DNA of 64,000 bases from Adineta vaga (taxonomy: Eukaryota; Animalia; Rotifera): the NCBI GenBank assembly GCA_021613535.1, contig CP075495.1, positions 186,001-250,000 on the forward strand. Direction: 5' to 3'. The notes below the pieces were generated by a model. That model was not told where the DNA came from. It worked only from the letters and a program-made list of their open reading frames with translations, and did no database searches. Shown piece by piece: positions 28,727 through 60,827 of this stretch. Within the stretch, counting starts at the first letter, position 1. Every line of letters starts with the position of its first letter. Made by a program: the position numbers and the translations under genes.

Positions 28727-29163
28727 GCTTGATAGATTTCCGGAAGTTAAAGACGACACTTCTCAATTAAAAATATTGAAGAATGAGAGTCAAATGCTTT
28801 TTACAAATATCTGAAACAAATGAACAAATTATTATTAAAAAGGTCATATTATCGATTGTTTTTTTTTCAAGTGAAGATAAATTATATATGAACTAATTAC
28901 AAGATTACAAAAAAATCAGTTAACATAAAACAACCACTCTAAATCAAAATGATTGAAAAATTTTTAATAGTTTAGTAGTTGTCCTTGAAAAATCGTATGG
29001 ATTTGTTTGATTATTAGATAACTATTCGTCGTTGATCTTGTCAAAACTTTTATTAATTTTGATAAAATAAATGGTGTTCAATTAATTGCGTCATTGGAAA
29101 TGCCGAAAGAGTTTCTTTTGTAGTATTGAATATGCAATGGCTTCAAGCATATTTCATGCCAAG

Positions 29164-32100: not shown

Positions 32101-35100
32101 AGGTTTTTTCCGATATAAACGAACATAATCATATAGACACATATTATCAAGCGCTCTTGAACGATATTGATAATCTACTCGAGTGTTAACATATACATAT
32201 TTGTTATTAGTCTCCGTTGGTTGAAGTGAAAATTGTTCTTCTGTTTCAAAGCAGTTTTCTTCATCGTTGATATCTGTAATATCTATCAAAATAAAAAAAG
32301 GTTCTAAGATTATATTCATTATTTATTGTATAGGTGAACTATGTCATAGTATCGTATTCACAATCTGACCTGCTGCAGAGAGCAAGAATATATCGATTTC
32401 TTAATGCTTAGTGAGTTCTATGAGATTTTATAGTTCCCCATAAGTACTATCGACTTATACATATATCTAATAAAATGAAAAAACATCTGACAAGAAAGTT
32501 TTTAACTTATAACAAAAAACGGCTTATAGAAATCTAGATATCACTTGTTATTTGAGACTGTTGTTTAAGTTTGGCGTCTATTAACATTGATTGTAAATAA
32601 TTCTCAATACCAATTAGAAATAGATTGACAAAATCGTGAGTTGTATAATGATCAGGCCAACCCATAAGATAAGAGGCCACTTGTACTCCAGATAGTTCTT
32701 GCTGTGATGCAAGCGTATTATAGCAACGCAAGACAAGTCGACGAGATTTTTCCTCGACATTCATAGCGGGGTTTATATGAAGCTTTTGCTTTTCAAAAGA
32801 TTGGACAGCTTTCAACATTAACGAGAATGTGTCACGAAACGAGAGACTCGATTTTGTGACATAATCTGTAACATAATATACCAAGGCCTTAGCATCACTG
32901 CCGCTGAAAATATATTTAATATCCATATTCGAACGGCACGCACTAATGATATATTCGTTGAAGTTATTAATTGTTTCATGAAGTCGCTTCAATTTAATTT
33001 CACCAGTTTCAACATTAATAGAGGATTCGTTTTCAGTTTTACGAGGCATTCGCATACGACATATAGGATTGTCGCTCTTTTTTGAATATTTATAACATGA
33101 TGCAGTGTGTTTATGCATATTATTAGTGCATACTAGCTTCACAACATCATTTTTAAAGTTGAGTTCAAAATTCGGCATTGATGGATTTGGTGTCGGCATG
33201 GTCGACGGCATGAGCTTCGAAGAATTATTTTCATTTTCATTAGAATTTGAAGATGATCTTTGCTGCTGTTCAAGATCTAAAAAGTTAATTTGATAAAATG
33301 AATTCTATATGTATTTATTTAGAGATGATCTTTTACCGTCATCTTCAGATGTATTAAGACTGAAGTTACTAAGGTCTTGCTTGATGATATCTTCTAAATA
33401 GTTAAGAAGACCACGTCGAAACTCTTCGTTTTGAACTGATTCTTTTAACTGAGAGGGTGTCAAATCATGATCAAGCCACATGAGAATATGTAAATGCAAT
33501 GAGCCCCGTCCTTGATTTTCAACTGTACCAAAGTAGGCTTTAATAGGACCTAGTACGCCCTTTTCAATCATACATTTAAGAATAGAAGAGATGAGTACAT
33601 TAAAAAACGACCTGTAGCCACGGGATGTGAAGCTATAATTTGAGCACGTTCGTATGTTGATGGAATTGTTTTTGGTATAATTTTATCGAGATCAAGGTCG
33701 ACACCAGCAAAATAGAGAGCAACACGGCTATGAATATCGGCAGGATTTATTGTCATAAATATACTAGGCAAATCTTGATTAAATGTCAGAGCATGGATCT
33801 TATTGCGAAGAGATGATCGAGAATAGGCTGAGCCCATGACACTTCCACCTACAGCCTTGATTTGATTCATGAATGTATTGATTCTTGGATTATCCACGGA
33901 AGAGAACGTCTTTTTGCCGATAGTTATGAGCGCTGACTCAATTTCTTTACTTGTCAAAGTTTGGAGATCATTTGCAGCGGTTTGAAAATAAGGTCGAGAA
34001 GCCATAAGAGTTGCATTCCGAAATGCTTGTCGTCGCTGTAATATATTAAAAAGAACGAACATGAATGAATGGTGCTTCTCAAAACGTTGATCATCATATG
34101 CTAGTAAATATCGTATGTGTTGCTCAAGTGACACTGGAATTGGCCTTGATAGATCCTGAGGTGCACCACATCCATAGGGGAAAAGAGTTGGATATAGACC
34201 AAGCAATAATTCTGGATTTAAACAATCGTTAATCGGCATATAAGATCTCGGAATCATAAACACATCATCTTCGTCTTCAGTTGGTTTATCTGATGAGTCA
34301 GCCGATACACTAGTTATATTCTTATGAACTTTACGAAGTAAATGTACGCCAATATCTTCTGACGAGATCATAGTTCCATTAACATCCAACACAGCACTAT
34401 TAAATTTTAAAATATTAGAAATTTTTCATTTTATAATTGAAACTTATTACCTAGGATTCATTGGGCATATGTTTTCTGAATTCATTTCATCTTGGTCAGT
34501 GGCATTTACCATTGGATCGTCAGTATATCCACTTCGTTCTGCATTTCCATCAATAGCATTTTCTAACCTTTCCAAGGTAATCCATATGCTCTCTGGAACA
34601 TCATCTTCAGGTAATTTTGCAATATTTCCCTCATTTACTAAGATGATATAGTACATATTTTAGAAAGCGTTTTTTTCTCTCAGAAACTTACCAGGAATTC
34701 CTCGATACATATGATTATGATTTTTCAACCATACGAGAGCACGACGAATTTTTTGTCGACTCACACCACAAATCTTACGTAATTGGACTCGATGCGGTGT
34801 GTGTGCGCCGATAAAAACAATTTTTAATGTATCAGAAAGATCTTCCACATCCAAGGGCAAACTTGTAACAATGTTTGGCATATTATGCATAAATGTAATT
34901 ACATTACCTTTGAGTGCAGCTTGAGCAGTAGAATGGTGATGAAAAGGAGAATGTAGTTTGATAATACAACTATTATGTCGATAAAGGGAAATTCTTCGAA
35001 AAGATAGTCGTGTATTCATAACTTTGTATTCTTTTCAATAATAGTTAATTACTTACAATTTTTCTTCAGCAATTGTTAGTCCCTGAAGCTCAAGCGGTAT

Positions 35101-36419
35101 ATCACCAATTCCACATTTTGTTTGCTACAGAGAACATTGGAATCTTATCTTTACTCAAAGCACTGTAGCACTGTTGACATACAGTACCAGTTTTTGTCAT
35201 CGTATTATATCCTCTCTTGTAAAGAACTATATTCGATATTGAGAAAGTATCAAAATTTTCGTCAACATCTGTAAATACGAATGATATGCAATCATGTAAT
35301 AATTACTTAATTAAGATATTTACCTTGTCTGTCGTCTTGTTTTTTTAGGAATAATATTCATGAGACCTATGTGAGTCGTTAGTTGTTTCACATTTAAAAT
35401 ATCTTGTAGAGCACATTCTTTCATGTTGTTAGTAGAGGCGCGAATATTACATAGAATACATACAGATTGTCGTAGGGCTGACATGGACATATGATTAGAG
35501 AAATCGTGCAAACAATGATTTTTTAATTTCGTTGGAATTGCCAATGGCCAAACAAGTTCTTTGAGTAGAGCTTGCTGCTCCTTTTCTAATATTCGTTGTT
35601 CTCGTTGTACGTTCACAGCTTCGACTAAATTACTTTTGGATCGCTGTCGATCCACTGCATCTTTCCCATTAGAGTTTTGTTGTTGTTTGTCTGTTAGAAG
35701 CCTATTTCTTTGTTTACTTCGACTTAACCTATTCTTTGCAGATCGTTCTCGTTGGACAGTAAGACGTATTCGCTGCTGATCTTCAGTTTCCTTTTCCCTT
35801 GCAGTCCGTTTGCGCAGTCGATCATCAGCTAGACGTTGTCTTCGCTGCTCTTCGCTTTCGACTATTTTCTCTTGGCGTTTCCGTTGACTGTTGTAAGTCT
35901 CTAAATTCGATGACGACTTCTCAACCAATGATGACATTACCTTGTGCTTCCTAATATTAGGCGGCGGTGAAAACTCAGGACTTCGTATAGATGAAATTTG
36001 GTTATTTTTAATCGTCTGCTTTCGTGGTGTCTAAATATACAAAAGTTTCAGACATATCTTTTTGGCTAATGCCCTATTATACACTATCTGTATTATCAGA
36101 TGTCTTTGCTCATTACTTACTGTTCGATCTCTGCGATATGGTTGTACAAGCGGTACAAAATGATTTGGACTCCATACTCCACCATTACCAGGACGATTTC
36201 TCGTAGAAAATTCATCCTCAGTGCTGCTCCAAAATATAATTAATCTTCCGTTAACTGGTGTAGTTGTGTCCAATGGCTTGTACATTGCATTCATAATTTT
36301 CATTTCTGCTCGGTAATCGATGAATGGATATACGCTTTGCACGTCACAATATAAAACATTAGCCAGCGCTACAAGCTCATAAAGTTCGGAATAACTACCA
36401 TTTTTACAAGTTTCTCTAA
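29164..36419 (-). pseudogene. Helitron RepHel polyprotein (OTU-like, charged coiled coil, DUF6570-like, HUH Rep, PIF1 helicase), multi-exon, frameshifted; left copy
   Basis: Rep motifs FMTINPAD, VENQGRGSLHLHILMW and YYVTDYVTK. Helicase motifs GCGGTGKS, APTSVAA, ILDEMSM, GDYIQYSPV, QQMR, TTHKSQGQT and YVPLSRV. OTU-like ALANVLYCDVQSVYP...NHFVPL. Confidence 0.92.
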
Positions 36420-39216
36420 CAAGGGAATGTCCCGAAGTGATGACCCGAGTTGAAGGCTGATATTATGTGGATGTGCTACACTAAGTACCCTGATGTCAAC
36501 TGTGAAACAATTATCGGCTGAGGCCTGTCCACTGAGAAACTATAATTATAACATTTTCTCACCATAGAGTACATGTATACCCCTACAGACATTTTTTTGA
36601 CTATTGTAGTTCTTGAACGGATACTGTTCCACATCCAAATATAGTGAAAGAATATGAATTGATATTGTTCGCAAATAATGTCGCACTATCACATCAGTCT
36701 ATATGTCTATTCCATCGAACCCAATAATGCTGTCTGCGTATATACGTAATTAGATACTTGTTTTCTTCTCTGGCATCTTTAAATACATTTTTATCTTTTT
36801 ATTGTAATCACATATTATTTCGCATTTATTGATAAATATTTCATCACTATGCTTATACGTACATCGCTCATACATGAATCAAAAAGAGAATGTACGTATG
36901 TTTCAATGATATTATGGACTTATCTTTTGATGATATGATCGTATCTTCTTTTATTGTTCCTGCGTAGATATAACGAATTCACTTTCTTTATATACTTGTA
37001 TTATCTGTTCCAGGCCTATATAATCACTCTTATATGTTTCATAGTATGTTCTCCAGGTCTTTGTAATCACTATCTCTTTCTTTGTAATATGGATCTCACT
37101 TCTATATTCGTTTGCTCCTTTGTTATCCGGAGCTATAAATAGATCGATTCTAATTCAAATTTAGCATGTGATATACATATATATTCATCTCATTTTATCA
37201 TACAATACACAATTAAAAACTTCTTTATTACACGGTAAGATAATGTGTTTCTGTTTTAATAAGTGATAAATAATCGTCTCTTCTCTAGCTTTCGATATTA
37301 AAATGGCAAATATAACAAATATTTTATATTTGTTGAACGATCTCGTACACCAAAAATATCCAGGTTCGAGTCTCAGTGAACCATCAGCAAAAGATCATGA
37401 GTTGGCAGATCAATTGTTTCTTATATTGGATCAGTTACTAAATGCAGCTGATTTAGAGTTCGAGAACATTAAAACATTAGATTTTAATGCGGATGATGAT
37501 GATGAAGAATATCAAGAAAACAATGATGATACACCATGCAACATCGATGGTACAAGATATTCTTATAATACAATGTGTAATATTGTTGAATACTCAAAAA
37601 AACACACATTTTCTTCATTACGTAGTCGTTACAAAAGAGTAAAATGTAAACAACAACTACATAGCATAAAACAATATGTTAAAGAACAAGGTACGAAGTC
37701 ACACAAGCTTCAACGTGTTGATGAATTTGTTTATATGGAATTCATGCGTGCTAGAAGATCGTATTTACCGATTCACGATTCTGATATAAGACGAATGGCT
37801 ATCAAAAAAGCACGTGAAATAAACCTAAATGATTTTGTGGCATCTCCTCATTGGATATTAAATTTCAAACGTCGTCATCATATTTCATCAAGAAAAATAA
37901 CCAAGTTAGTGACCAAACATCATCTAGAAGATCGTGATGAAATATTAAAATCTGCCGAGAACTTTGTTAAAGCAGTGAACAACATGGTTTCAAACTATGC
38001 GGAAGATCATATATTAAATACTGATCAAAGTAGTTTTAAGCAAGTTGACTTTCTTATGTACAAGAAAAGTAATATTTTTTTATTTTCAGTTATGAAAATG
38101 TATCGAAAAGAACTTTATCGACAACCGGTGAAAAATCAACAATAGGCCAGATAAAATCAATGAATGCTGTAACACATTCATACACCATTATGCCTACGAT
38201 TAGTATGGCTGGAAAATTAATTGGACCAGTTTTTATATGTCTACAAGAACCAACAGGAAGGCTAGGACCGCGTGTCAAACGATCGCTGTATGAGGCAAAT
38301 AATATCCATGTTACATGTAGCCAATCCGGGAAATTAACCAAAACACATGTTCGTTATTGAGCTGAAAAAGTTCTACGTCCTTCAGTTTCCAAAGATTGCT
38401 TATTGTTATTGGACTCGTGGTCTGGTCAAACGGATCCTAGTACTTATGATGGCATCTTTAATGAAGATGTTACATGTGAACGAATGCAAATTCCACCTAA
38501 AACAACTGGAGATATTCAACCATTAGATCGGTATTTCTTTCGTCAATGGAAATATTTAAAACAAAAAATATGTGATCGTATAGCCATTGATCGAATAAAT
38601 ATCGATATTACTTCTCGAAACAATATCTTAAAAATGCACTCGTTAATACACAATCAGCTGTCCGCAAGTAGATTTTCACCAATGATACAGTATGCATGGT
38701 TTTCAACAGGATATTTATCAAGAGATCCAGGTAGTTTTGACAATGTGCGTGATGTGTGTTTTTCTTTCGCTGAAGATTTTTGCTCTGTTACCACATGTAA
38801 CGATTGTTCTTTTATTTCTTGTAGTTACTGTGACAGTATACTCTGTTTTACTCATTTTTTCATTGATGATCATAAACATTGATATCAACATATATTCTTA
38901 TCGTCATAGAAAGATCTACTCGTTAAGCACATATAGACTGATGTGATAGTGCGACATTATTTGCGAACAATATCAATTCATATTCTTTCACTATATTTGG
39001 ATGTGGAACAGTATCCGTTCAAGAACTACAATAGTCAAAAAAAATGTCTGTAGGGGTATACATGTACTCTATGGTGAGAAAACGTTATAATTATAGTTTC
39101 TCAGTGGACAGGCCTCAGCCGATAATTGTTTCACAGTTGACATCAGGGTACTTAGTGTAGCACATCCACATAATATCAGCCTTCAACTCGGGTCATCACT
39201 TCGGGACATTCCCTTG
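36420..39216 (+). mobile_element. Tc4/Tc5-like (pogo-related) DNA transposon, 2797 bp, ~287-bp TIRs
   Basis: Ends CAAGGGAATGTCCCGAAG ... CTTCGGGACATTCCCTTG, flanked by TAA / TTA (TNA target). The insertion cuts the OTU-like coding frame. Confidence 0.88.
37303..38882 (+). pseudogene. Tc5-like transposase (CENP-B-type HTH, DD37D, Cys-rich C-terminus), one GC-AG intron and one premature TGA
   Basis: Motifs FVASPHWILNFKRRH, NTDQ, LLLDSW..(37 aa)..QPLD and a C-terminal Cys cluster. Removing intron 38040-38089 restores the frame. TGA at 38358-38360. Confidence 0.88.
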
Positions 39217-42200
39217 TTAGAGAAACTTGTAAAAATGGTAGTTATTCCGAACTTTATGAGCTTCTAGCGCTGGCTAATGTTTTATATTGTGACGTGCAAA
39301 GCGTATATCCATTCATCGATTACCGAGCAGAAATGAAAATTATGAATGCAATGTACAAGCCATTGGACACAACTACACCAGTTAACGGAAGATTAATTAT
39401 ATTTTGGAGCAGCACTGAGGATGAATTTTCTACGAGAAATCGTCCTGGTAATGGTGGAGTATGGAGTCCAAATCATTTTGTACCGCTTGTACAACCATAT
39501 CGCAGAGATCGAACAGTAAGTAATGAGCAAAGACATCTGATAATACAGATAGTGTATAATAGGGCATTAGCCAAAAAGATATGTCTGAAACTTTTGTATA
39601 TTTAGACACCACGAAAGCAGACGATTAAAAATAACCAAATTTCATCTATACGAAGTCCTGAGTTTTCACCGCCACCTAATATTAGGAAGCACACGGTAAC
39701 GTCATCATTGGTTGAGAAGTCGTCATCGAATTTAGAGACTTACAACAGTCAATGGAAACGCCAAGAGAAAATAGTCGAAAGCGAAGAGCAGCGAAGACAA
39801 CGTCTAGCTGATGATCGACTGCGCAAACGGACTGCAAGGGAAAAGGAAACTGAAGATCAGCAGCGAATACGTCTTACTGTCCAACGAGAACGATCTGCAA
39901 CGAATAGGTTAAGTCGAAGTAAACAAAGAACTAGGCTTCTAACGGACAAACAACAACAAAACTCTAATGCGAAAGATACAGTGGATCGACAGCGATCCAA
40001 AAGTAATTTAGTCGAAGCTGTGAACATACAGCGAGAACAACGAATATTAGAAAAGGAGCAGCAAGCTCTACTCAACGAATTTGTTTGGCCAATGACAATT
40101 CCAACGAAATTAAAAGATTATTGTTTGCATGATTTCTCTAATCATATGTCCATGTCAGCCCTACGACAATCTGTATGTATTCTATGTAATATTCGCGCCT
40201 CTACTAACAACATGAAAGAATGTGCTCTACAAGATATTTTAAATGTGAAACAACTAACGACTCACATAGGTCTCATGAATATTATTCCTAAAAAACAAGA
40301 AGAGAGACAAGGTAAATATCTTAATTAAGTAATTATTACATGATTGCATATCATTCGTATTTACAGATGTTGACGAAAATTTTGATACTTTCTCAATATC
40401 GAATATAGTTCTTTACAAGAGAGGATATAATACGATGACAAAAACTGGTACTGTATGTCAACAGTGCTACAGTGCTTTGAGTAAAGATAAGATTCCAATG
40501 TTCTCTGTAGCAAACAAAATGTGGAATTGGTGATATACCGCTTGAGCTTCAGGGACTAACAATTGCTGAAGAAAAATTGTAAGTAATTAACTATTATTGA
40601 AAAGAATACAAAGTTATGAATACACGACTATCTTTTCGAAGAATTTCCCTTTATCGACATAATAGTTGTATTATCAAACTACATTCTCCTTTTCATCACC
40701 ATTCTACTGCTCAAGCTGCACTCAAAGGTAATGTAATTACATTTATGCATAATATGCCAAACATTGTTACAAGTTTGCCCTTGGATGTGGAAGATCTTTC
40801 TGATACATTAAAAATTGTTTTTATCGGCGCACACACACACCGCATCGAGTCCAATTACGTAAGATTTGTGGTGTGAGTCGACAAAAAATTCGTCGTGCTC
40901 TCGTATGGTTGAAAAATCATAATCATATGTATCGAGGAATTCCTGGTAAGTTTCTGAGAGAAAAAAACGCTTTCTAAAATATGTATTATATCATCTTAGT
41001 AAATGAGGGAAATATTGCAAAATTACCTGAAGATGATGTTCCAGAGAGCATATGGACTACCTTGGAAAGGTTAGAAAATGCTATTGATGGAAATGCAGAA
41101 CGAAGTGGATATACTGACGATCCAATGGTAAATGCCACTGACCAAGATGAAATGAATTCAGAAAACATATGCCCAATGAATCCTAGGTAATAAGTTTCAA
41201 TTATAAAATGAAAAATTTCTAATATTTTAAAATTTAATAGTGCTGTGTTGGATGTTAATGGAACTATGATCTCGTCAGAAGATATTGGCGTACATTTACT
41301 TCGTAAAGTTCATAAGAATATAACTAGTGTATCGGCTGACTCATCAGATAAACCAACTGACGACGAAGATGATGTGTTTATGATTCCGAGATCTCATATG
41401 CCGATTAACGATTGTTTCAATCCAGAATTATTGCTTGGTCTATATCCAACTCTTTTCCCCTATGGATGTGGTGTACCTCAGGATCTATCAAGGCCAATTC
41501 CAGTGTCACTTGAGCAACACATACGATATTTACTAGCATATGATGATCAACGTTTTGAGAAGCACCATTCATTCATGTTCGTTCTTTTTAATATATTACA
41601 GCGACGACAAGCATTTCGGAATGCAACTCTTATGGCTTCTCGACCTTATTTTCAAACCGCTGCAAATGATCTCCAAACTTTGACAAGTAAAGAAATTGAG
41701 TCAGCGCTCATAACTATCGGCAAAAAGACGTTCTCTTCCGTGGATAATCCAAGAATCAATACACTCATGAATCAAATCAAGGCTGTAGGTGGAAGTGTCA
41801 TGGGCTCGGCCTATTCTCGATCATCTCTTCGCAATAAGATCCATGCTCTGATATTTAATCAAGGTTTGCCTAGTATATTTATGACAATAAATCCTGCCGA
41901 TATTCATAGCCGTGTTGCTCTGTATTTTGCTGGCGTCGACCTTGATCTCGATAAAATTATACCAGAAACAATTCCACCAAGATACGAACGTGCTCAAATT
42001 ATAGCTTCACATCCCGTGGCTACAGGTCGTTTTTTTAATGTACTCATCTCTTCTATTCTTAAATGTATGATTGAAAAGGGCGTACTAGGTCCTATTAAAG
42101 CCTACTTTGGTACAGTTGAAAATCAAGGACGGGGCTCATTGCATTTACATATTCTCATGTGGCTTGATCATGATTTGACACCCTCTCAGTTAAAAGAATC

Positions 42201-45200
42201 AGTTCAAAATGAAGAGTTTCGACGTGGTCTTCTTAACTATTTAGAAGATATCATCAAGCAAGACCTTAGTAACTTCAGTCTTAATACATCTGAAGATGAC
42301 GGTAAAAGATCATCTCTAAATAAATACATATAGAATTCATTTTATCAAATTAACTTTTTAGATCTTGAACAGCAGCAAAGATCATCTTCAAATTCTAATC
42401 AAAATGAAAATAATTCTTCGAAGCTCATGCCATCGATCATGCTGACACCAAATCCATCAATGCCGAATTTTGAATTCGACTTTAAAAATGATGTCGTGAA
42501 GCTAGTATGCACTAATAATATGCATAAACACACTGCATCATGTTGTAAATATTCAAAAAAGAGCGATAATCCTATATGCCGTATGCGAATGCCTCGTAAA
42601 ACTGAAAACGAATCCTCTATTAATGTTGAAACTGGTGAAATTAAATTGAAGCGACTTCATGAAACAATTAATAACTTCAACGAATATATCATTAGTGCGT
42701 GCCGTTCGAATATGGATATTAAATATATTTTCAGTGGCAGTGATGCTAAGGCCTTGGTATATTATGTTACAGATTATGTCACAGAATCGACTCTCTCCTT
42801 TCACGATACATTCTCATTGATGTTGAAAGCTGTTCAATCTTTTGAAAAGCAAAAACTTAATGCGAACGTCGCTATGAATGCCGAGGAAAAATCTCGTCGA
42901 CTTGTCTTGCGTTGCTATAATACGCTTGCATCACAGCAAGAACTATCTGGAGTACAAGTGGCCTCTTATCTTATGGGTTGGCCTGATCATTATACAACTC
43001 ACGATTTTGTCAATCTATTTCTAATTGGTATTGAGAATTATTTACAATCAATGTTAATAGACGCCAAACTTAAACAACAGTTTCAAATAACAAGTACTAT
43101 TTAGATTTCTATAAGCCGTTGTTTGTTATAAGTTAAAAACTTACTTGTCAGATGTTTTTTCATTTTATTAGATATATGTATAAGTCGATAGTACTTATGG
43201 GGAACTATAAAATCTCATAGAACTCACTAAGCATTAAGAAATCGATATATTCTTGCTCTCTGCAGCAGGTCAGATTGTGAATACGATACTATGACATAGT
43301 TCACCTATACAATAAATAATGAATATAATCTTAGAACCTTTTTTTATTTTGATAGATATTACAGATATCAACGATGAAGAAAACTGCTTTGAAACAGAAG
43401 AACAATTTTCACTTCAACCAACGGAGACTAATAACAAATATGTATATGTTAACACTCGAGTAGATTATCAATATCGTTCAAGAGCGCTTGATAATATGTG
43501 TCTATATGATTATGTTCGTTTATATCGGAAAAAACCTATTGATGCAAGAGATCGAAAGCATTTGGAAACTCAATCAGAATCGACAAATGATCATTCAAAA
43601 ACTTTACACCGTGGCCGACCATTTTCTGAAAGAGAGATGTTTCAAGCTCAACATCCGCAAGCAACATCACATATAAATATAAAGCGTATGATACCAGTCG
43701 TTCCAGTCTTACTTGGTCCTCCAATACCTCGTAAAGACCGAGAAGATACAAAAGAACGTTATTGCCGAGCCATATTGCCTCTTTTTCTTCCCTGGCGCAC
43801 ATTTGAAGACGTATCTAATGTTAACCAGACATGGGAAGAAGCATTTCATATGCATCAAACTAAAATCCTTCCAACATCATGGAAAATCATCAATAATATA
43901 CAGTTGCTTCAAGAATGTAAAAGTGATCGTGATGAGCATTTGCAGCAGGTAATTGAAGCTGCACAAACTGATACTGGTGGTGGCGAGTACTATTCTCATC
44001 ATGTTAACAGTGATAGTGAGGATGAAAATACTGAAGTACTTGATGTATTAGAAGCGTTGGATATCGCTGACATGCCTACTTTCAATCACAATGCGAATAA
44101 AGTAGAACAAATATATTTTGAAAAGATAGTGAAAGCAGTGGATCAAGCTAACAGATTTGCAAATATTCGAAGTAAGAGTATTCATTTTTGAAGATAACCA
44201 TTAATAACTGTCATTTATAGATTCGCATACAGGAGCGACAAATCGCCTTACATATACGTCCAAATTGCAGGGGAATATTGTTTCTGATCATGAACATTTA
44301 AGTGCCAGCAACTCATGAACTACTTCAATTAAATAATAGATGGCAACGAAAAATTAAAGACGATAAAGATCGAATAAGAAATGCTTGTATAGGTGAACAA
44401 CCACAAAATAACATTGTGGAGAATAATGATAATGTCGAAAATGAACTGGCTAAAGTTATCGAAGATAATTTACCATAAAATCTAGATAATAATAAGACCA
44501 TCTCGAGTTCAGGACACATTATGTCAGTCACAAAAATTATTGTACCAAACGAAATAACACGAGAGAACATGGCAAGACAATTCACGCTGAACAAGAATCA
44601 AAAAGCTGCATTTATGATTATTACTGGTCATCTGGATGGCTTAGATAGTTTAAACGGAGGTACGATGATGTAATAAATCGGAAAAAATTATAACCATACT
44701 AATTTTTTTCTAGTTGACAAACAAGATCAGTTAATTATGTGTGTACCCGGCTGTGGTGGTACAGGAAAGTCTCAATTGATCCGTGCTGTTACTGCCTATT
44801 TTACAGAAACAAATCGTGCGCATAAATTGAGAAAACTTGCGCCAACATCAGTTGCCGCAGCAGAGATTGAAGGCATGACAATTCATTCCTTTCTCGGTGA
44901 AGGACGCAATCGGAAAAGGAAATAAAAAACTATGAATCGTCCAGGTCAGATGACACTTGAAAATACATGGCGTTTTGTAGAATATATCATTCTTGATGAA
45001 ATGTCAATGGTTGGTCTTAGCTTATTGGCTCGTTTGAATAAACTTGTTGCGACAGCTAAGCATTGTGATCCCATGTCTACGATGGGCGGTATAAACATAA
45101 TTTTTTTCGGAGATTATATTCAATACTCACCTGTATTTGACAAACCACTTTATTATAATTTTTCCACTACGTCAGACAACGATGGAAAAAGGAACACGAA

Positions 45201-46474
45201 CTTGCCGACTGAAAACGATATTCAACAAAAAAGTGCTCGAGCACTTGTCTTACAAATAAACTGTGTTGTTATGCTTGAGCAACAGATGAGAACAAAAGAT
45301 ATAGCTTATCGAGCTCTGTTGGATAGAGTTCGTAATGGTGAAGGAACAAATGCAGATTGGCAACTACTTCGAACACGTGTAATTGCCATAGGACTTAATA
45401 TATCTCTTAATGATCCACCATGGAACGAGGTATGTTACGAATACAATTAGTCCATTCATACAAATTACAGCATACAGATATAATTATAAAACAAATGAGT
45501 AACTTTGAAAGTAGAGTTTTTTCTTTCATTCGTATGAACTTACTGTAGTGCTCTTTGCAAAGAATATCATATTATTCAATGCAGTTAATTTCCTTTCTTC
45601 TCTTGTACTATTTTAGGCTCCAATTCTTGTTTACCGTAATGAACTTAGAACAGAACTGAACAATCGAGCTGTAATCAATAAAGCATATGAAATGGGTCGA
45701 GTTCCAACTGTTGTGATAGCTACAGATACAATAAAAGCTAAGAGACATATCGACCTTCCTGATTTGGCGAGACGTCTTTTAAGTTTACCGGATAATAAAA
45801 CAGAACATTTACCTGGTTACTTACCTCTTGTGTCAGGTATGCCTGTGCTATTGCAAGAAAATATAGCTTGTGAACTTGGTCTGTCAAATGGGACACAAGG
45901 TATTTTTCGTAGATTAGTTTATGATCATACAGCAGAACCTACTACAGGATCTAAAGAAGATGTTTTCACAAATGATACTGTCTTTATTCGTAATGCTCAA
46001 TACACAATAGTAGAAATATCAAAATCAAAAATCAAAAAGTTTGATTCACTTGACGCACTTCTTGTCCCTATTCCAGTGGTCGAAAAGACGTTTGATGTCA
46101 GTTTGGAGAAGCTGTACGCGAACAAAGCAGCAGTTATGAAAATATTCAAACATAAAAAAGTTAAAGCTACCATATCTGTGAAGAGAAAAGCTTTGCCATT
46201 GATACCAGCCTATTCTATCACTACTCATAAGAGTCAAGGTCAAACACTACCGAAGATAATGATTGATTTAAATATGCTACCTGGAATGGTAGAGGTCGCA
46301 TCTGCTTATGTACCACTTTCCAGAGTACAACAGCTTTCGGATCTCGTAATTTTACAAGACTTCAGCATCACTGCTTTACAAGTAAAGCCATCTAAAGGAC
46401 AAATATCTGAGCTTAACAGATTAGCTGTACTTTTTGAACAAACAAAAAAATGTTATGCTCAATATTTTGTATGA
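39217..46474 (+). pseudogene. Helitron RepHel polyprotein, right copy
   Basis: Same motifs as the left copy. Extra lesions include a premature TAA at ~44476 and YVTK changed to YVTE. Confidence 0.92.
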
Positions 46475-46911
46475 CTTGACGTGAAATATGTTTGAAGTCA
46501 TTGTATATTCAATACTACAAAAGAAACTCTTTCGGCATTTCCAATGACGCAATTAATTGAACACCATTTATTTTATCAAAATGAATAAAAGTTTTGACAA
46601 GATCAACGACGAATAGTTATCTAATAATCAAACAAATCCATACGATTTTTCAAGGACAACTACTAAACTATTAAAAATTTTTCAATCATTTTGATTTAGA
46701 GTGGTTGTTTTATGTTAACTGATTTTTTTGTAATCTTGTAATTAGTTCATATATAATTTATCTTCACTTGAAAAAAAAACAATCGATAATATGACCTTTT
46801 TAATAATAATTTGTTCATTTGTTTCAGATATTTGTAAAAAGCATTTGACTCTCATTCTTCAATATTTTTAATTGAGAAGTGTCGTCTTTAACTTCCGGAA
46901 ATCTATCAAGC

Positions 46912-48758
46912 ATGATATACAACATTGTACTATTATTTCTTCTCTTGATTTTATTCTCACACAATATTCTTGGCAAACTTAATGATATCTTTGGACAAAA
47001 TACCACAATTGGTCATCCTGAATCAGGTCTATTCTTTACTTATGTGGGTGTGAGGGGAGTGAGTTTATTGCATGATGAGAATGAGATGGAACACACACAC
47101 ACACACAAGTAGAAGATACTGCTTTTTATATACTATCTGTGATCACATGTACATGACTCAAAGCATCCGATCCATATACACATAACTCATGAGTTATCGT
47201 GGCTGAAGGCCATGACAGTGGGTTCATACACACCATCTGACAAAATTATTCATAACTCAGCCATTTTTCCAATGACTGTTGCTACTTGTTACTTTTTACC
47301 ATTATCAAGTGCTTCAAAGATTCCGTCATGTAATATTACAATGAAAAGAAATAAACGTCTTCTTACTGATATCATTAGTATAGGTGTAGGACTTACCAGT
47401 CTTGCCATATCTACGGCGAATTCTATGCAAATAATAAATCTTCAGCAACAAGTGACACTAGTCGAGAAATCTCTCTCAGAATTCTCTAATACTATGCGTG
47501 CACATGGAGCACTACTAGTAAAATTTCAAGAAATCCAGATTGAATTGGCAAAGGAACTTCAAACGACACAACAAGCTATCAATGCTATAATTCCGATTTT
47601 ACAAATGCATTCAAGAAGTCTTGAAAGTCTCAGAGATAGTGTTGAAAAGCTACACATCCAGATTCGACGTTCCTTTCTTTACTTAGCGTTAGAGAAAATC
47701 TTCCATAATAAACTTACTTTAGAATTTCTCTCGCCAGATGATCTACATAGTGTAATCTATGATGTTATATCAGGAGGAAATCTAACATTCAATGCCGAGT
47801 ATGGACAGATTCCAATTGCTCAAATTACTACTAACCTTCTCGTTCGTCAACAAGTCGATTTTGTTCCCAGCTCTCGATACACCACTATGAATCCAGAAGA
47901 AATTGGCCGTCTTGTTATTACAAGTTATTTTGCCGTTCCACAACAACAACATTCACCATTTTATACCTACAAATTAATGGCAATTCCGTTCTTCTATGAA
48001 AATAAAACTATTCAAATTGGTCACATTCCTCAGTATTGGGCAATTAATCCCATAGACAATATCACTATGGAATGGCATGATCCTCAAACATCTGGATGTG
48101 ATCTTCAATTGATGACAACTTGCCGTGATACTCCACCAATACAACCGATAACAGACAAAACTTGTCTTGGTCAAATCATTGGAACTCTATCATTGTCAAG
48201 TTGTCAAATAACATCAGCTCCATCCGAACCATTCTTTATTCGACAACTGCGAGGTAATCTTTGGGTGACTTCGTCACCTGAACCACTTCATTGTTTGAAA
48301 ATTCCTAAATTTGAGTACTCTATTCTTAAACCGCAAACACGGAACATAAATGAACAAGTTATACTGCCGCCTATATCGGTTGTAAATGTGACTCCAGGGT
48401 ATACAATTACATGTCCTGGTTTTACTTTAGTAGGTCAACCAATACCCTCGAGCGGTCCATCATTTGCAGTTATTTATAACAATAGTCTCCTGACAAATAA
48501 TATCCCTATTGTTGATGTTTATAACATCTGAAAAGAATACATCGTGGTTTAATGTAAAATCGCGTGAACCAAAGAATCGATGACATTATTAAACGTTTGA
48601 TCGAACCAGTCACTCTTCCTGATATCCAAACATTTCATCCTAAAGATGTGTGGTCTCTTAGTGCATTAGTTATCAGCTGGATATGTTTAGGATTAATCTC
48701 TATTGCACTATACTATGTTTATCGACGTAGGTTGAAGAATAATATACAAAGTATCTGA
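46912..48758 (+). pseudogene. Env/F-like fusion glycoprotein no. 1 (right copy), solo-LTR insertion and 3' frameshift
   Basis: Removing the LTR plus one TSD copy restores ..GLFFTYVGSYTPSDK... There is a frameshift at ~48520 relative to the left copy. Confidence 0.85.
47049..47217 (-). mobile_element. Solo LTR, 169 bp, 5-bp TSD GTGGG
   Basis: TG...CA termini; GTGGG at 47044-47048 and 47218-47222. TATA and AATAAA are on the strand antisense to env. Confidence 0.85.
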
Positions 48759-49603
48759 TTGACTTAATTCGGTCACTAATAGCGAATCTTTGTAAGATAT
48801 AATATTCGAAAATTTAATATAAAAATCTAAAAAAAACTATTTAGACTAATGTATACAACCAAAATCATGTTTCTCATCTCCAACTTCATATAACAATATA
48901 AAATTGAGTGAAATAGGAAGAAAAATATAGAATCAATAGAACAAACCAATATTTTTTCCTTATTGTTAGCATACTTTTTTATGTCAAAATAATTCAATTT
49001 TCATAAGTTTTTGAGCTAACAAATATTTACCTTTAATTGTACAAATTTATTTATTGCAATCTCATAACCATTTATGGACTCTTAAATATAGTTTAAGATA
49101 ACTAATCTATTGATCGTTCAATTTTTTCAACTATATTTACTCGTTTCTGATGCTGAAGTGTTTTCTTTGTTAAACTTGTAAATTAATCTTCATGAAATCC
49201 ATATATTTGAGCTTATCGTTTTTTTTCATGTTTTTTGTATTATAGAATCTCACTCTTATACTGGGATACTCATGTGTCAGTGTTCATTACGATCAGAAAA
49301 CGTATTATAAGCTTGGAATAACCATAATTAATTCCTTGCCGATCAAACGCTTATAACAAGTGTGTTTTTTATTTTTATTTTTGTTTCGCAAATTGTACTG
49401 TTTTTAATCGTTCTGTTATTACAAAAATAAACTGACACTGATTATTGCTTTATCTTTGAATCTTTTGGAAAAACCAAGTGTCATATAAAATTATTAAAAT
49501 TTTTTTATTCATATTGTCACGTTATTCTTTCAGAAAAGGGCCCGCGAATCCAGAGGATGAGCCTTACTTGTGTGTAACGTAGCCAGAATCTAAGAGTACT
49601 TAC

Positions 49604-51819
49604 GATTTGTATATATTTGTTTTTGGGTAACATAGTAGTTCATTAACAATACAGCTGCTTTTGCTGTATCTTGAGATTCTACTATCCATTTGTGAGTTTG
49701 TTTAAAATCTTTTACAGCTCGTTTAAGCATATCAAATACTGGTGGCGTAGTATCAACGTAACTAGGTAATGGACTATGTTCAATCAATTGGTCAAAAACA
49801 GCTGAAGCTAAAGAGGTGGCATGTAACGCTCCAGCTAATCTGCTCACTTGTACTTTTGCCTTTCTCAAGATAGATCATAGACCTTGATCGATACCATATG
49901 CTGCACGTATCTGATGTGTGTATTCGTCGAAGTAGTGTTGATTACCTGTACAGTAACAGAATGAGAAGCAGCTAATCATTGAAAAAATATTATTATATAT
50001 ATATTATTAAGTATTAGGTGGTTATTTGTTATCTTTTCGAATGTTAACTACACATATTCCCCTACAATACTATTATTGTTTTAATTCTTTTAGAACGATC
50101 GTTATTTAGCTGTTCCAGTTAAAAGAAAAAATTATCAAATTAAAATACTGCACCTGTTGCGCATCATTCGAGTACGAATATATTATACGTTTGTCATCAC
50201 GATCTGTTGTTTGCCGTATATCATTATGCTCCGCTGAATTAAAACAATATATAATATATAGTAAGTGAGCAAGACTTGGTTCATCAATATTAAGATTTGT
50301 AATTTCATCCGACAAAGGGATGCAGGGTTCGGTAGCAGCAAAAAGAAATAGCGCCATAAGTCCATCATCATCTGTCTCATTGGAGACGGATGAAAATATG
50401 TCAGCAGGATGTGCAGCTGCAGCAATATTAACCCTTTCGAGGCGATGAGACCCACCGGTGTGTCTCATTATATTTCAAGAAGAAATGTCATAGAAAAACG
50501 CTTTCTTTTCCTTTTTTTTCTTATAGGAAAGGCTACAGATAATGTATTATCTATTCTACGTTCGTTATTTTCCGAATCATCTATTGCATACTATAATGCT
50601 TTTCGTTGAAACAATCAAGACAAAAAACATTTTCACAATCAGAGCAGAAAGTTTTTATTTTCTTTGCTGTTGCTAAACTCGCTTCTCGCGATTGCTGAGG
50701 GTATAGAGAGTGACGCACACAGGATGTTATAGAAGATGATATCCATATAAAAAAATTCAGGTAGAGAATATCTAAAATATGTAGGGCAGGATATCATGAA
50801 ATGATATCTTTAAAAACATATTCTGAAGATAAAGAATTTTATCCATGTACAGAGAAACAAGTGGCATATGAAGTAAACTGCATTTGTTAGAAAAATACGT
50901 CTCACCAGAAAACATCTAAATCAACTCAAAATTCAATTCTTTCAATACACAAGAGAAAAGAATCGAAAGTAATGATACGAAAAGAACATAAAACGAAAAA
51001 CAAATTAATTGCACTTCTTTGTCTCGCTTCTATCGCATAAAATACGTGTGAAAATAGTGAACTTCAATAACTATCAATTAAATGGAAGCGAGGATTCTTC
51101 ATACATTCATGGGAACAAGACAAAGAGAAACAAACGGTCATATACCCTCAAAAACGCTAACAGGTGTATTTATAGAGAATAAATATACATGAAAACAATA
51201 AATTTTAGCTCTTTTTTAAAAAATTCAATCGCCTCGAAAGGGTTAAGGACCGGATTTTCAACTACAATATTTCCTGATTTTTGTTTGACGTTTAACGACT
51301 GATGATGAGTTATATAAAGTGCACATGATTGATCGGTCATAAGCAGCACCGCCTTATTTGTATAAACTGAACGATTGCAACAGAGTAACTGCTTTATCCC
51401 ATATTTGTATCAATTTAGGTGATGTATTTTTTAATTCAGTCAAAAGTGATTCAACCGTTGCACAACAATTGCCTCGACTTTTCTCTAGTTTTACACCTAT
51501 ATGCTTTTCGATGAGGAGACATCCTTTCAGAACAGCATCTGTTGCACTTGATTTATTTACACTGATATCCAATAATTGTTGTAAAAATGAAATATTTGTT
51601 GGTGTACCGGTGTTGCTACGCATTTGACTGACATTGAAAATGATGGCAGGTAACAACATTGTAATCAAATATTCATGAAGCATCTGACTGCTGCAACAAA
51701 TGTTACTGATAACGCTGCATATATTTTCATCGAAAATTTTAGTAACATCCATTTGATATGAGGCAGCCTTTTTGCATTATGCTACGCACTTTATGTGTAG
51801 ATATTCCTTTTGAAGACAT
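49604..51819 (-). pseudogene. DUF3987-like NTPase gene (right copy)
   Basis: Mirror of 23820-26048 with extra small indels. Confidence 0.55.
50432..51242 (-). mobile_element. Non-autonomous piggyBac (right copy)
   Basis: TTAA-CCCTTTCGAGGCGAT ... ATCGCCTCGAAAGGG-TTAA. Confidence 0.93.
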
Positions 51820-52617
51820 TGATAATGTAAAGAGAAGCGAGAGTAAAATTACCAAAAGTAGAACAACAATAATATGAAATATGAAATCGAATGAGTTCGA
51901 GTACTTTAGTGTGCTCAGCCGTGACCAGTGCATTATACACATCTGAGTGAGTAAGCATACTTATACTTTGACAAAAACATGTTTTGATCTGTTTCATCTC
52001 AAAATTTCGATTATAGCTGAACATTTCGCATTCGTAACTTGCAAACATCAATGTAAAAGTACAACAACTCATCACGACTGACTTGGCGATTAATCCTTTT
52101 TCGGTTCATTGTTCTCAATTTATTCTCATTATCAATACATCGTTTCGTCCTCATCCACAACACCTGGATTTTGTATTTCGATTCAAATATATTGTACGTA
52201 TACTTAACAGTACAACTCATATCGTCAATTATTTGGTATTGCTTAAACAATTGTTTTCATTGACTGATCAATTGTCGATTTAAACTCAATATTTGAATTT
52301 ATATTATCAATTCAATTGATATTAATTCAATCATTCGTTTTACTCAAATCATCTTTTGCTGCTTTATTAGTGTATTGATATTTATTCTGTCAGAAATTGC
52401 GTTGGATAGAAATTAACATGTTCGTACTGACTTTGGTTCGATATTTATATATATTCGCATATTTACTCGTTTATTGTAATTTAAGCTTTTATCATAATAC
52501 GTAGAATTTGTTAACTTTTTTGGAAATATATTTGAAATCTTTATTGATAATCTATATATAAGACATTGTTTTACATTTAACGTTGCGAATTAAAATAAAA
52601 AATAGTTGCATCGAAAA

Positions 52618-54270
52618 ATGGCTTCTTCCTCGAAATTTGACATAAACAGTATTTTATATCCTCTTACTTCATTTGAAATGGCAACGAATCTTCACCAATT
52701 AAACATGAAAATTAATAAATTTACTCCTCGTCGTAATTATCATATTACGTGCCTATTAAATCGTATTTTTGAAACAAAATTTTCTCCTGAGCAAATTGGA
52801 ATTCGTTTAGAAAATTGGAAATCACTCATGCCAATATATAAAGACTTTTTTGTAATAAGATCTATGGAAGAAGTCGAGAGACATATCAAGAATTATTATT
52901 CTAATCAACTTAATAATTTTTCGGCATCACTCATCAATTGTTTTATACCTTTAATCACTCATTGTATGAATAATAATTGTGCAAGAAATGAGTTGGCAAA
53001 TCCGATTCCTCACCACGACGTCACGATTTTCTGCTGTGGTGAGAGATCGAAGAAAGGAACAGTGTTCTTCAAACAACGTATTAAATATAATTACAAATAT
53101 TTTTATCATTATTGTCTTCGTTATCAGACGGCCAGAAGATGTTGACGATTCGTCCTAATGATGAAATTTTCGTTGTTTTTTCAAATTATGGATATGAAAA
53201 ACGTCTTCTTTTACAGATCGATGGCGATATTTTATTCAAACATTGTGGCTTCTCAAATTGTGCTAATGCTTTCAATTATTTAAATGATAAATTTGAAGGA
53301 AAAGAAGGTGATAATATGAATCGTTTTCATCTTCAAAAAACATTGTTTCTTTGGCGTCTCGGCAATTTTGGTGCAAGCGAAAATTTCCGTATGCCTATTC
53401 CAGATCAACAAGATTTTCATACAACACTTCTGAATATATTACCGGACGTTAAAGATTTATTTACTAGAAAATGGGGTAAAAGAGATCATAAATATTGCAA
53501 AGGACCATGTAGCGCAACTATCGTACTGGATGGACATCAAAAAGCAACCAGAAGAGTTTGTGCTGTGAAAAATATATCTATTCCAAGTATTGATGGGTCT
53601 ATTGGTGACGTTAAAGTTGGATGTTCAGCTAGACCTGAATATAGAAGTAAAAGATGTCGTGAACATTTATCAACGAACGATGATGATAACAATGATCAAA
53701 AAGAACATTTGAACATGCAAATCCCTCGAGTTCGTCGTTTTCTCAGGAGAAGAACAAGAAAAAATAGAGGTCGATTTCATCTTCAATGTAAAACATTAAA
53801 GTCGTTACTATATAAACGTATCTTGCAACGCACATCTGGAATTGTCGCTGCTGCTTTTAACTGTGGATTTGTCTGCAGTATTTCCGAATTATTCAGATAT
53901 GAATCTATAACGCAAATATATAACTTTCTCGTTTATATGTATCAAAATATCGAAAATTTTCTCGAAATTTTAATTTACGATGATGCCTGCCACTTGAAAC
54001 TGTTTATCAAAAATTCTAATAATTTTATTCAAACAACTCGCGCACGACAAAAACTAGAAAGACTAAAATTTTTTGCGATAAACTACATTATCGAAATCAT
54101 ATAGATCCTTGGTGTCGTCAAAATACTAATCCATATAATGATCCAGTTGCTAATTCTACTAATACTGAGATATGTGAACAAATTTTTGCATGGCTTGCAC
54201 AATATAAAAATGTCGTTAGAGGTTTTAATGAATCTACCTTCTTAATCTACATCTGTCTTCTTTGTGATTT
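52618..54270 (+). pseudogene. CxC5/CxC6 KDZ transposase (right copy)
   Basis: Mirror of 21370-23027, with an extra frameshift at ~53120 and loss of CxxC (KQCIKC changed to KQRIKY). Confidence 0.8.
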
Positions 54271-56516
54271 GTATAATAGTAACAGATATGATAACTTACG
54301 TAAAGAGTATTTGTCATCAAATACACATACAACTAATACTATGTAGTTTATATAGCAAACAGCATACAAATTTCTTGTTATGCTTGCTTAACACTTTTAC
54401 TCACTGATAAGTTCTTTCTTGTTCATACACTTAGACATTCTTTTATTCATAATTAAATTGTTGATGTTGATTTTTTTATGATATTGTAGCGAAATCTCTT
54501 TCATTCAAAATCCTTTTCGTTCTCTAGTTTTATCTTAATAAATGTGGGACATTGATACGCTGTGTTCGGAAAAAAATGACTATTGATAAAATGGTATTCT
54601 GTTCATTTTTTGTTTTTCATACTCAGACTATTTAGTGATGTTTCCTAGACTCAATAGTCAGATATCCTTTTTAATCTCCAAGAACCTTTTCTTCGTCAGT
54701 TATTTTTACTTTAGAAAGGTATTGAGCTGTAACAAATCAGCACATATTTTACTGGTGATCTATTATGAAACCTCGCTGTAGATAGATTGTATCTCCGAAA
54801 AACAGCGCAATCATAAATGTTGATATAATAAAGATAAATGAAACAATATAATACCTAAAAAATCTAAACAATAAATAGAAAACAAATGGCTAGATGCTTT
54901 TTTCGTTCGTTAATTTCGAATATATTCATCGAACGATATCTTTTTTTTTCAATTATACACACATGTGTACATGACCTATACGTCATCATAGGTAATTCAA
55001 GAGAGAATTTCTCTCTTACAAATATATTTCTGTCGTTGAAAACAGGTCTATTCGATTCGAAATCAAATTCTGCATCGATTGAAACTAGTTTTAGTTGAGA
55101 TCAGAATGAGCGATAAAAAAGAGAACATGTACAAGATTGATATAAAGATTAATAGATTTGAGTAGAAAAAAAAGAGAATATAAATCATTCTGTTCATGAA
55201 TGTATATTTTTTTCATCAGATAAAAACATGAATATTTGATTAGAATATTATGATGAAGTATATTTCAATATAAACTGTTTTTTTGGTATTGTCATTATTT
55301 GCCATACAGCACACCCTCATACACTTCCTTCTAAATATTTGTGACTTTTTATATTGATGATAGTTGTGAAAGCATTTTCTATTTTTACATATAGAGAAAT
55401 AACATACAAAAGAGATCGTTTTTGAAAACTTTTCCATTTTTCAACTGATTAAGTCACCACAATTTTTCTGTAAAATCTTTTAATACCTATGAAAGAAAAA
55501 GTAAATAAATAAAATCAGCCCACACCACGGATTTCCCGCTCGATATCAATGAAATAGAAAAACAAAGTTTCTCTCTATTACACCTGAACAGATCATAAGA
55601 AAGCTTCATATTTTGAGTAACAGAAAAAAAAGTAAAAACTATTGTATGCTTCTTATGAAAAAACCGATCATTGAATATCCCGTATGTCCCGTTCTTCAAA
55701 AAATCTATTTATCATATATGAAGAAAAAATTCTGTTTTTGTCTGAATACAAGTTTCAATGTGACGCATGTCCCGCGAATACAAAAATCTGTCTACTGTTT
55801 GAAGAAAAACAAAATTCTATTTCTCTTTTCATACGAATTCCAATGTACCTCCTGTCCCCAAAGTAAAAAAACATCTATCTAAGTTTAAAGACAAACGACA
55901 TAGTTTATTTATGGTAGTTAAAATGATTACTTATACATTTATCAATTATAATATCTTCTCTATGAGTTAAATGAAAAAATAGATAGATATAGAAATTGTT
56001 TTTGTATTTATATCAATTCCAAACTCAACTAAATTCTCTAACCGACTGCCATATAGTGATATTATTAAGCATATCTTTCGATGTTAATTAATCTCGTTAT
56101 CGTCCTTCTGCGTTCAATCACAATTACACCCTTTTATCAAATGTAAATATGTCACGTCTCTTTATATGATAAATACATTCCTATTAAACTACGTTTATAC
56201 ATATGTACGTCTGCTTTTCATGAATGTTTTTTTCTTTTTGAACAATTAGCTAAATGAATGAGAGATTAGCTCTCGTCTGCTCTTCCTCTCTCTCCTTTAG
56301 CGACGATAATTCATTCATACAGTCATAAAAATATAATTCTAAAAATTTTAAATAAACTCCAAAGTTTAACCTTACACATCCTTATCTTCGACAACTATAT
56401 TGTATTATTACGAACTCATATAATTCTGGTACAGTACAGTTTTGTCTTTGATTTTAACTAATATAGAATTCGATACTGATTAGATTCCGATATTCTGATT
56501 TTTGTTCTGTTAAAAA

Positions 56517-59500: not shown

Positions 59501-59859
59501 CGAAATATATCTATTGATATGTTCAGAGAAAATGACTGAGCCTCCGAAACCTTCAATAGAACTGGTCTGATGTTCCTCAGGAAACATGTTTCTAGACTTT
59601 GTTTACATTTCTGAAAACCAAAAAATTCCAAAAAGAATACTTTTAAAGAAGTTCCACGCTTTTTCTCGACATTTTTCTATATATAAAAATACACCATAGG
59701 TGTTCCGAGAAAATGCTCAAAAACTCGGAGTTTTTGGGTAAGAGTACTTAATTTTTTTTAACTAAAAGTGTTTTCTAGTCGAGATCAACCTTTTGAACAA
59801 AAAAAAAACGAAAAAAACGACCTTTCTAAAAAAGTGGATGGGTCCTCATGGATTCACCC
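56517..59859 (-). mobile_element. Sola2-like DNA transposon, 3' end missing
   Basis: Candidate 5' terminus GGGTGAATCCATGAGGACCC (GRG-type) at 59859. No partner TIR is seen before the palindrome edge at 56516. Confidence 0.55.
56600..59147 (-). CDS. Sola2-like DDD transposase, multi-exon (integrity uncertain)
   Basis: Motifs [29 protein letters not shown] and [18 protein letters not shown]. The Sola2 subfamily name is recalled from motif pattern only. Confidence 0.65.
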
Positions 59860-60827
59860 ATATACTGTTTTGAATTACTTTAGCAGTCATCATTTCAGAA
59901 AAGTAAAACTCGAGATTTTTACATCAAAAAGACTTTTTTTAATTAAACAATGTGAAGGATGCATTGATCTTCATCAATGATGTATTACCATTTGTATACA
60001 TCTTTTTTTTAAAAGAAAAAAACCGTTAGCGTTCATTATGCCGTGAATGTCCATCCACTGACATGAAAAGAAATTGTTCTACAAAAAATGATCTGTGTGT
60101 CATTGCAGTTTGTTTCTCGTATAAAAATTAATTTTTATAGCACATGAAAATATTGTTCAAGAAAGGAAATATATCGATCAGTTTTGTATAAAAATATATT
60201 TCTTATTTCGAAAGGAAAGAAACAAACGGACAAAAAAGGAAACAATCGGACGGAGAAAGAAACAAACGGACGGACGAGGGCAGAAAGACAAAAATTGTAT
60301 TATAGCCTAGTGTATTTAGACAGTAAATAATTTAAATCAAACATCAAATTGAAACTTATTAAGAACTTAGAAAGATACATTTTTCTCATATTGATAATAT
60401 CAAAATGTAACACGTCCATATAATAAAAGTCGACTGATCAACTACATTACGTTCATTTTTCATACTGCAATCAAGGTAAATATAGATGTAAAGACAGGAT
60501 AATTTTGTCAGCTGAGTCAATCGTTTAATAATACTGTAATGAATGTGATTGTTGTTTTTTAAACTTGTTGTATAGAATAAATGAACATCTGGCAAGTATA
60601 TAATATAGTATTTTAATAGTTTATATTACCGCAGGAAAAGCATGTATTTAAAACGAAAATATAGAAACATCTTAAAAGTCAATGCGTCACAGACCATTAC
60701 CATTTTCATTTGGCAGATAATAAGAGCCACTGACGTTGTTTTGAAAAGTTCATGCTATTAATTAAAATGCACATTCTTATTGTTTAGTTAATTTTGGATA
60801 CTTACTAAAAGTTGTTTATTATTTTAG

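Follow-up and report, generated by a model that had tools for sequence, protein, structure and literature searches.

Helitrons of the HLE2 type (Helitron2, Helentron and proto-Helentron) combine an RGSxHxH Rep signature with DUF6570 and a PIF1 helicase, and the consulted parts of two reports also describe an OTU domain upstream of Rep, a T after the 3' end and cargo ORFs (PMC4067079, PMC11417382). The Helitron described here from Adineta vaga is alike in all these respects, but differs in harboring a whole, selected viral-type fusion (env) gene, in showing no endonuclease domain and in a 3' end of CTTG or CTAG; its 5' end and sub-terminal repeats were not recovered. The same env family is found in the TelKA LTR retrotransposons of Adineta vaga, where env likewise comes last behind the replication gene, according to the portion of PMC5408684 consulted. 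Unlike TelKA, the env-bearing Helitron carries no gag, pol or flanking LTRs, hence no gag-pol-env array between two LTRs as in TelKA and the errantiviruses, and its replication falls to an HUH Rep and a helicase. Metazoan errantiviruses with an F-type env resemble it in the type of fusion gene, and two of our distant loci (L020 and L021, 29%) are gag-pol-env elements of this kind; as far as the consulted sections of PMC13524379 extend, all such errantiviruses are Ty3/gypsy, whereas the env-bearing Helitron is a rolling-circle element.

A DNA transposon that gained a viral fusogen is known from nematode Mavericks with MFUS-1, a protein proposed to aid their horizontal spread (bioRxiv 10.1101/2022.07.12.499685, in the part consulted). 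Mavericks, however, encode PolB, integrase, capsid proteins and a class III gB-like fusogen, none of which occurs in the env-bearing Helitron with its class I F protein, and the complete elements L003 and L011 lack the PolB, integrase, capsid genes and long TIRs that mark Mavericks/Polintons. Alphapleolipoviruses resemble the Helitron functionally only, combining a rolling-circle Rep with a fusion spike and no capsid, with integration in some (PMC12642806); they are archaeal and have an unrelated V-shaped spike, an internal membrane protein and proven virions, whereas the env-bearing Helitron is represented by genes only, and its animal host and F fold place it outside the Pleolipoviridae.

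No Helitron with an env was found in the literature searched, which included the consulted parts of PMC6431247, PMC7943196 and PMC5718144. The words "helitron" and "rolling" have no mention in the main text of PMC13524379, nor has "helitron" in PMC5408684. The arrangement could already be on record in the HELIANO domain tables, in the supplement of the A. vaga genome paper, or in Repbase or Dfam entries. The preliminary description of this locus had known of no account of the arrangement, which holds for Helitron and env together in the literature searched but not for the broader idea of a DNA transposon with a fusogen. Since nematode Mavericks already pair the two, the novelty lies in the rolling-circle, capsid-less setting. 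Within it, the env-bearing HLE2 Helitron is real, recurrent and apparently undescribed.

The window, that is, the whole stretch of 64,000 nucleotides analysed, contains the following features.

39217 to 49570, plus strand: HLE2-type Helitron, right-arm copy, 5'-truncated and dead
39217 to 46474, plus strand: RepHel gene, intron-containing, with OTU-like piece, DUF6570, Rep and PIF1 helicase
46818 to 46830, plus strand: predicted splice acceptor (pyrimidine tract, YAG|ATA), 85 nt upstream of the env ATG
46912 to 48758, plus strand: env-like gene, class I F type, broken in the window
47049 to 47217, minus strand: solo-LTR-like insert splitting env, 169 bp, TG...CA, with a 5-bp GTGGG duplication
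49526 to 49570, plus strand: conserved 3' terminus (TTTCAG..GGG..GCGA..weak stem..TACTTG, then T), defined by sequence conservation
36420 to 39216, plus strand: Tc5-like DNA transposon at the palindrome centre, with 287-bp terminal inverted repeats
26082 to 36419, minus strand: left-arm Helitron copy of the same insertion, with env at 26899 to 28726, also split by the insert

An ORF scan of the window matched RepHel to DUF6570 (E 6e-12), Helitron_like_N (E 6e-35) and PIF1 (E 1e-7), and the Rep motifs read FMTINP, ENQGRGSLHLH and YVTDYVT. HUH Rep and PIF1 helicase thus occupy a single transposase gene, as in Helitron-like elements, and the S in ExQxRG(S)xHxH (here ENQGRGSLHLH) together with DUF6570 assigns the element to HLE2. 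The Helentron trait, an AP endonuclease fused behind the helicase, is missing, with no endonuclease family among the scanned ORFs. Neither the 20 ORFs scanned around the Helitron nor tblastn of LTR pol and gag against the window gave a match to gag, pol or integrase, in agreement with the preliminary description, which had reported none of these genes and no flanking LTRs. Some of its details had to be given up. Position 39217, taken there as the element start, is instead the insertion site of the Tc5-like element, which cuts the OTU frame; it is not the 5' end, because another contig continues that frame upstream. The OTU-like piece cut here matches OTU with E 1e-4 in its L011 homologue. Aligning four upstream regions did not fix the true 5' end, nor was it located in L001 to L003. 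The label DUF3987 for the interrupted flanking gene was dropped, as the flanking ORF pieces have no Pfam match.

The PIF1 frame ends at 46474 and the env ATG follows at 46912 on the same strand, 438 bp on (about 440 bp had been stated); the env stop codon lies at 48756 to 48758. The full class I fusogen architecture claimed for the gene was recovered: a signal peptide, an RNKR cleavage site (47347 to 47358), a hydrophobic peptide, long helices, a Cys-rich region, a TM segment and a short tail. A joint that skips the insert (47043 to 47218) was found in 4/4 DNA runs and in 3/4 presumed RNA runs, indicating that insert-free env copies exist. The right-arm env has further frameshifts near 48520 to 48570, and the left-arm env has an open frame of 522 codons that begins within the insert and runs up to the stop. 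That env lies inside the Helitron is borne out by a 747-bp contig that in each of the four DNA runs reads from the PIF1 stop into the env start, and by recurrence of the PIF1-env order at six distinct sites. The depth of this contig is 2.6 to 5.3 times that of the palindrome centre, depth being a rough guide only, and DNA-run depth over RepHel and env as a whole also exceeds that of the centre. A 3964-nt contig (X17) runs from PIF1 through an insert-free env to a CTAG end followed by T and a different flank. As a separate observation, the insert-free copy sits within the PIF1 sequence of another Helitron.

The 3' end could be placed at 49570: behind 49571, 10 to 11 contigs diverge into unlike flanks in 4/4 DNA runs, which gives the element a defined 3' end common to copies with different flanks and followed by T, as in Helitron-like elements. 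Seven to ten contigs have only the last 47 bp in common with it and may be env-less relatives. Canonical (HLE1) Helitrons are marked by a 3' hairpin plus CTRR, a 5' TC and an A|T target, HLE2 elements by short terminal inverted repeats and a T|T target. The terminus reads CTTG in the window, L003, L004 and L011, and CTAG in the copy on the 3964-nt contig. A GC-rich hairpin (49536 to 49565) had been reported near this end; as a strong structure it was rejected, since it folds no better than shuffled sequence (z +0.7 and +1.0), and it is sequence conservation that marks the end. Across the 3' stems, z ranged from -0.7 to +1.0 against shuffles, and one of nine pairs was compensatory. A conserved TTTCAGAAAAGGG is found some 45 nt short of the end, the position expected for a 3' sub-terminal repeat; no convincing inverted partner was found in the window or in the 24 loci described below, whose 5' ends are missing.

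Scanning metagenome contigs with an alignment of 58 env homologues returned 24 loci (L001 to L024); a single-sequence scan of metagenome contigs and a scan of viral contigs returned none. Nineteen of them form a near clade (42-60% identical to the query), of which four with less than 300 bp upstream were left out, leaving 15 informative loci with at least 800 bp of upstream DNA each. PIF1 stands directly upstream of env, on the same strand, in 12 of the 15 (L002-L009, L011-L013 and L016). These collapse to six distinct sites, whose envs are 44-81% identical to each other. The RepHel-env order is thus kept at independent flanks, and the conserved 3' end follows in three of the loci. Pol is found upstream of env in none of the 15. 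None of the three outcomes that the preliminary description had named as refuting it was observed: family copies ending before env, env homologues always linked to gag-pol, or a protein that does not model as a class I fusogen. PIF1, env and terminus succeed one another in L003, L004 and L011. These are the three of 12 loci tested that have the terminus downstream. It was not found past env in the other nine, five of which have less than 500 bp there and two (L005 and L017) less than 1600; in L001 and L002, env runs straight into the first ORF of the next copy. Env-less Helitron members are uncountable here because the search was anchored on env. We consider it very probable that env holds a fixed place between the helicase and the 3' end in a bdelloid Helitron lineage.

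Three informative loci depart from this order. In L001, a copy of the element's short first ORF stands on either side of env, with no RepHel; in L018, env is cut at its 5' side, with mariner-like ORFs upstream; and in L024 a piece that we take to be transposase-like precedes env. None of the five distant loci (29-35%) has RepHel, and L020 and L021 have pol upstream. In L002, env is open, but the F-box ORF next to it has decayed and only about 48 codons of PIF1 are left. L001, L002 and protein P0103 are head-to-tail tandem derivatives that lost RepHel and have env open. Two of nine NCBI proteins examined come from gene models that merge PIF1 and env pieces, with PIF1 followed by env in P0091 (Rotaria magnacalcarata) and an env piece followed by PIF1 in P0110 (Adineta steineri).

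The complete elements L003 and L011 consist of an F-box/LRR-like ORF, OTU-RepHel, env and terminus, preceded in L003 by the short ORF. No capsid, matrix or packaging gene was found, the other cargo being the F-box/LRR-like ORF and the short ORF. The former lies at 5501-6538 in L002, 838-1857 in L003 and 86-1138 in L011 and has 24 homologues; its structural model is weak (pLDDT 50; LRR matches at E 0.01-0.1). The short ORF upstream of OTU-RepHel ends in an acidic helix. Together with OTU, the two ORFs look like ubiquitin-system cargo.

The protein encoded by the window env is represented by P0002, a natural intact homologue of 571 aa that is 95% identical to the window frame and spans both halves, which are therefore one gene. 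The family comprises 288 representatives at 50% clustering, its named members all come from Adineta and Rotaria, which points to a bdelloid rotifer as host, and 54 of the 58 homologues retain the Rx[KR]R cleavage motif. Sequence searches of the PDB with env gave at best weak F matches (E 0.03), and none in another search; a Fusion_gly (PF00523-like) match appeared in one of 31 aligned members (E 1e-5). The predicted structure of P0002 (pLDDT 71) found its best Foldseek matches in RSV, hMPV and paramyxovirus F (RSV F, E 1e-9), with Z 12.1 and rmsd 6.0 over 299 aligned residues in VIA, and also matched baculovirus F and mononega/chuvirus (insect-virus) glycoproteins. TM-scores reach only about 0.3, a level to be expected when the monomer is flexible. 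The fold check suggested earlier thus points to a class I F, and the family shows the corresponding traits: signal peptide, basic site, hydrophobic peptide, heptad helices, conserved Cys and a TM anchor. The gene is predicted to encode a class I fusogen whose fold resembles pneumo/paramyxovirus F. No long fused env proteins turned up when looked for, which is weak evidence. Among seven PIF1-linked envs, dN/dS, a check suggested earlier, is 0.15-0.34 in all 21 pairs, with dS above 1 and near saturation in most pairs and a value of 0.31 in the least saturated one. As a side observation, the near-clade env models P0044, P0088, P0104 and L010 (1482-1796) continue into a common C-terminal stretch that was not found in the window.

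Signs of expression come from four runs presumed to be RNA, none of them recorded as such. In these runs, RepHel shows GT..AG joints of sense orientation, though at shallow depth. Deeper presumed-RNA contigs over helicase and env carry a CT..AC joint (45076-45131) and poly(T) before 45963, and the RNA over this region looks antisense. An AATAAA lies on the minus strand at 45983-45988, and signs of antisense spliced, polyadenylated RNA extend across 43337-49568. By eye, a YAG|ATA acceptor-like motif precedes the env ATG in 7/7 PIF1-env spacers; no spliced joint into the env acceptor, and no env mRNA, was seen in the four runs.

The deposited Adineta vaga env clones ARJ54444-6 are 48% identical to the window env, and their substitutions match the env1a (TelKA1a) rows in the consulted table of Rodriguez et al. 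(PMC5408684). Helitron-linked envs spread over a 78-row clade in which TelKA1a env is nested, indicating that the gene is shared with retroelements. In a 16-row tree, holding nine Helitron-type rows together without TelKA1a was weakly rejected (AU p 0.026), the genomic context being unknown for most family members. Movement of env genes between DNA transposons and retroelements is thereby suggested, possibly from Helitron to LTR element. On this sequence comparison, transfer from a Helitron to TelKA1a would be the simpler reading, and repeated capture from LTR elements into Helitrons the alternative in the other direction.

The usual view is that Helitrons reach other hosts only as passengers in viruses. 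A lineage in which the element itself encodes a conserved fusogen would be the first case of a rolling-circle transposon that brings along its own entry protein. It would also open two questions to experiment: by what path a DNA transposon enters the germline or another host in the absence of sex, and by what means DNA travels among bdelloid rotifers. RepHel would make circular intermediates, as other Helitrons do (PMC6431247, in the part consulted). Env, translated from a spliced message entering at the conserved acceptor, would be cut at its RxKR site and exposed on vesicles or at the surface of the cell. Fusion with a neighbouring cell could then carry circles and RepHel over; the most plausible case is passage into the oocyte from somatic or nurse tissue, and passage between animals may also occur. 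That env helps circular Helitron DNA to move between cells in the absence of a capsid is, in our estimate, an evenly balanced proposition.

A different reading accepts env as a true part of the Helitron but has it kept for the host, either by blocking F-bearing retroelements and viruses or by serving fusion in syncytial tissues, the element gaining only indirectly. It would explain why env is open in the Rep-less or decayed derivatives L001 and L002, and it is consistent with the fact that these animals also carry a related env on TelKA1a, and with the well-known domestication of retroviral env (PMC5408684, in the part consulted). However, env has a constant place within complete elements whose many copies have varied flanks, at no fixed host locus, and an insertion destroyed the window env without apparent cost; we regard host benefit as possible but rather unlikely. 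Also unlikely, and tentative, is an extension of the cell-to-cell reading, by which these Helitrons would be enveloped agents that lack a capsid, the eukaryotic equivalent of pleolipoviruses, whose circles leave in F-studded vesicles, infect other cells or animals and carry flanking DNA, with env donated to TelKA1a. If true, bdelloids would have in them a candidate means of exchanging DNA.

The Helitron env might instead act in trans, coating TelKA-type Gag particles with which Helitron DNA or RNA hitch-hikes. The nesting of TelKA1a among Helitron-linked envs and the weak rejection of a separate Helitron clade argue for exchange of env between Helitrons and TelKA, and so speak for such a use. 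Yet Gag packages RNA rather than Helitron circles, and no pol stands beside env in 15/15 informative near-clade loci, which renders the trans reading distinctly doubtful.

Env could also be an unused passenger, acquired once or repeatedly from LTR elements by 3' end bypass, the standard mechanism of Helitron capture (PMC6431247). The prevalence of antisense RNA over env and its broken state in the window, L009 and L011 agree with this. So does the failure to establish co-divergence with PIF1 in the five to six elements available (Mantel p 36/720, 45/120 and 7/120); the raw PIF1/env correlation (rho 0.81) was set aside after the permutation test. Position, orientation, acceptor motif and terminus are nevertheless alike across elements whose envs are 44-64% identical, dN/dS is far below 1, LTR or pol remnants are absent beside env, and whole-gene capture by Helitrons is called exceptionally rare (PMC6431247, in the sections consulted for both statements), leaving the passenger reading quite improbable. 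A chance neighbourhood or assembly artefact, with env from a nested LTR remnant, has next to no probability: the region is transposon-crowded and palindromic, but bridging contigs in 4/4 independent runs and an identical PIF1-env order at six other sites rule out the nested remnant.

The palindrome itself has arms of 17.6 kb (19109-36706 and 38929-56529) that are 98.3% identical. The arms differ by about 1.2-1.8%, and the TIRs of the Tc5-like element (HTH_Tnp_Tc5, E 1e-8; Transp_Tc5_C, E 4e-11) at 1/287. Both Tc5-like ends abut an identical TTA site in the Helitron OTU frame, the uninterrupted context being C-TTA-G, and Tc5 elements prefer CTNAG targets. This suggests that the palindrome arose by transposase-driven inverted duplication around the Tc5-like element. 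The window helicase has a premature stop at 44923-44925, which L003 and L011 lack. Since both arms carry the env insert and the helicase stop absent from relatives, both Helitron copies are dead and derive from a single insertion, as had been proposed; they are remnants duplicated into a palindrome around the Tc5 insertion.

Just outside the palindrome, a second, distant F-type env-like gene (17118-18953, minus strand; E 2e-14 to the env profile) has a signal peptide, an RQKR site, a TM segment and three in-frame stops. It lies downstream of a CxC5/KDZ-type transposase (21546-23039), with no gag or pol seen nearby, and might belong to another env-bearing DNA transposon. Remnants of several more KDZ-like and DDE-like transposases occupy 2375-9721, 52606-54346 and 56722-63233.
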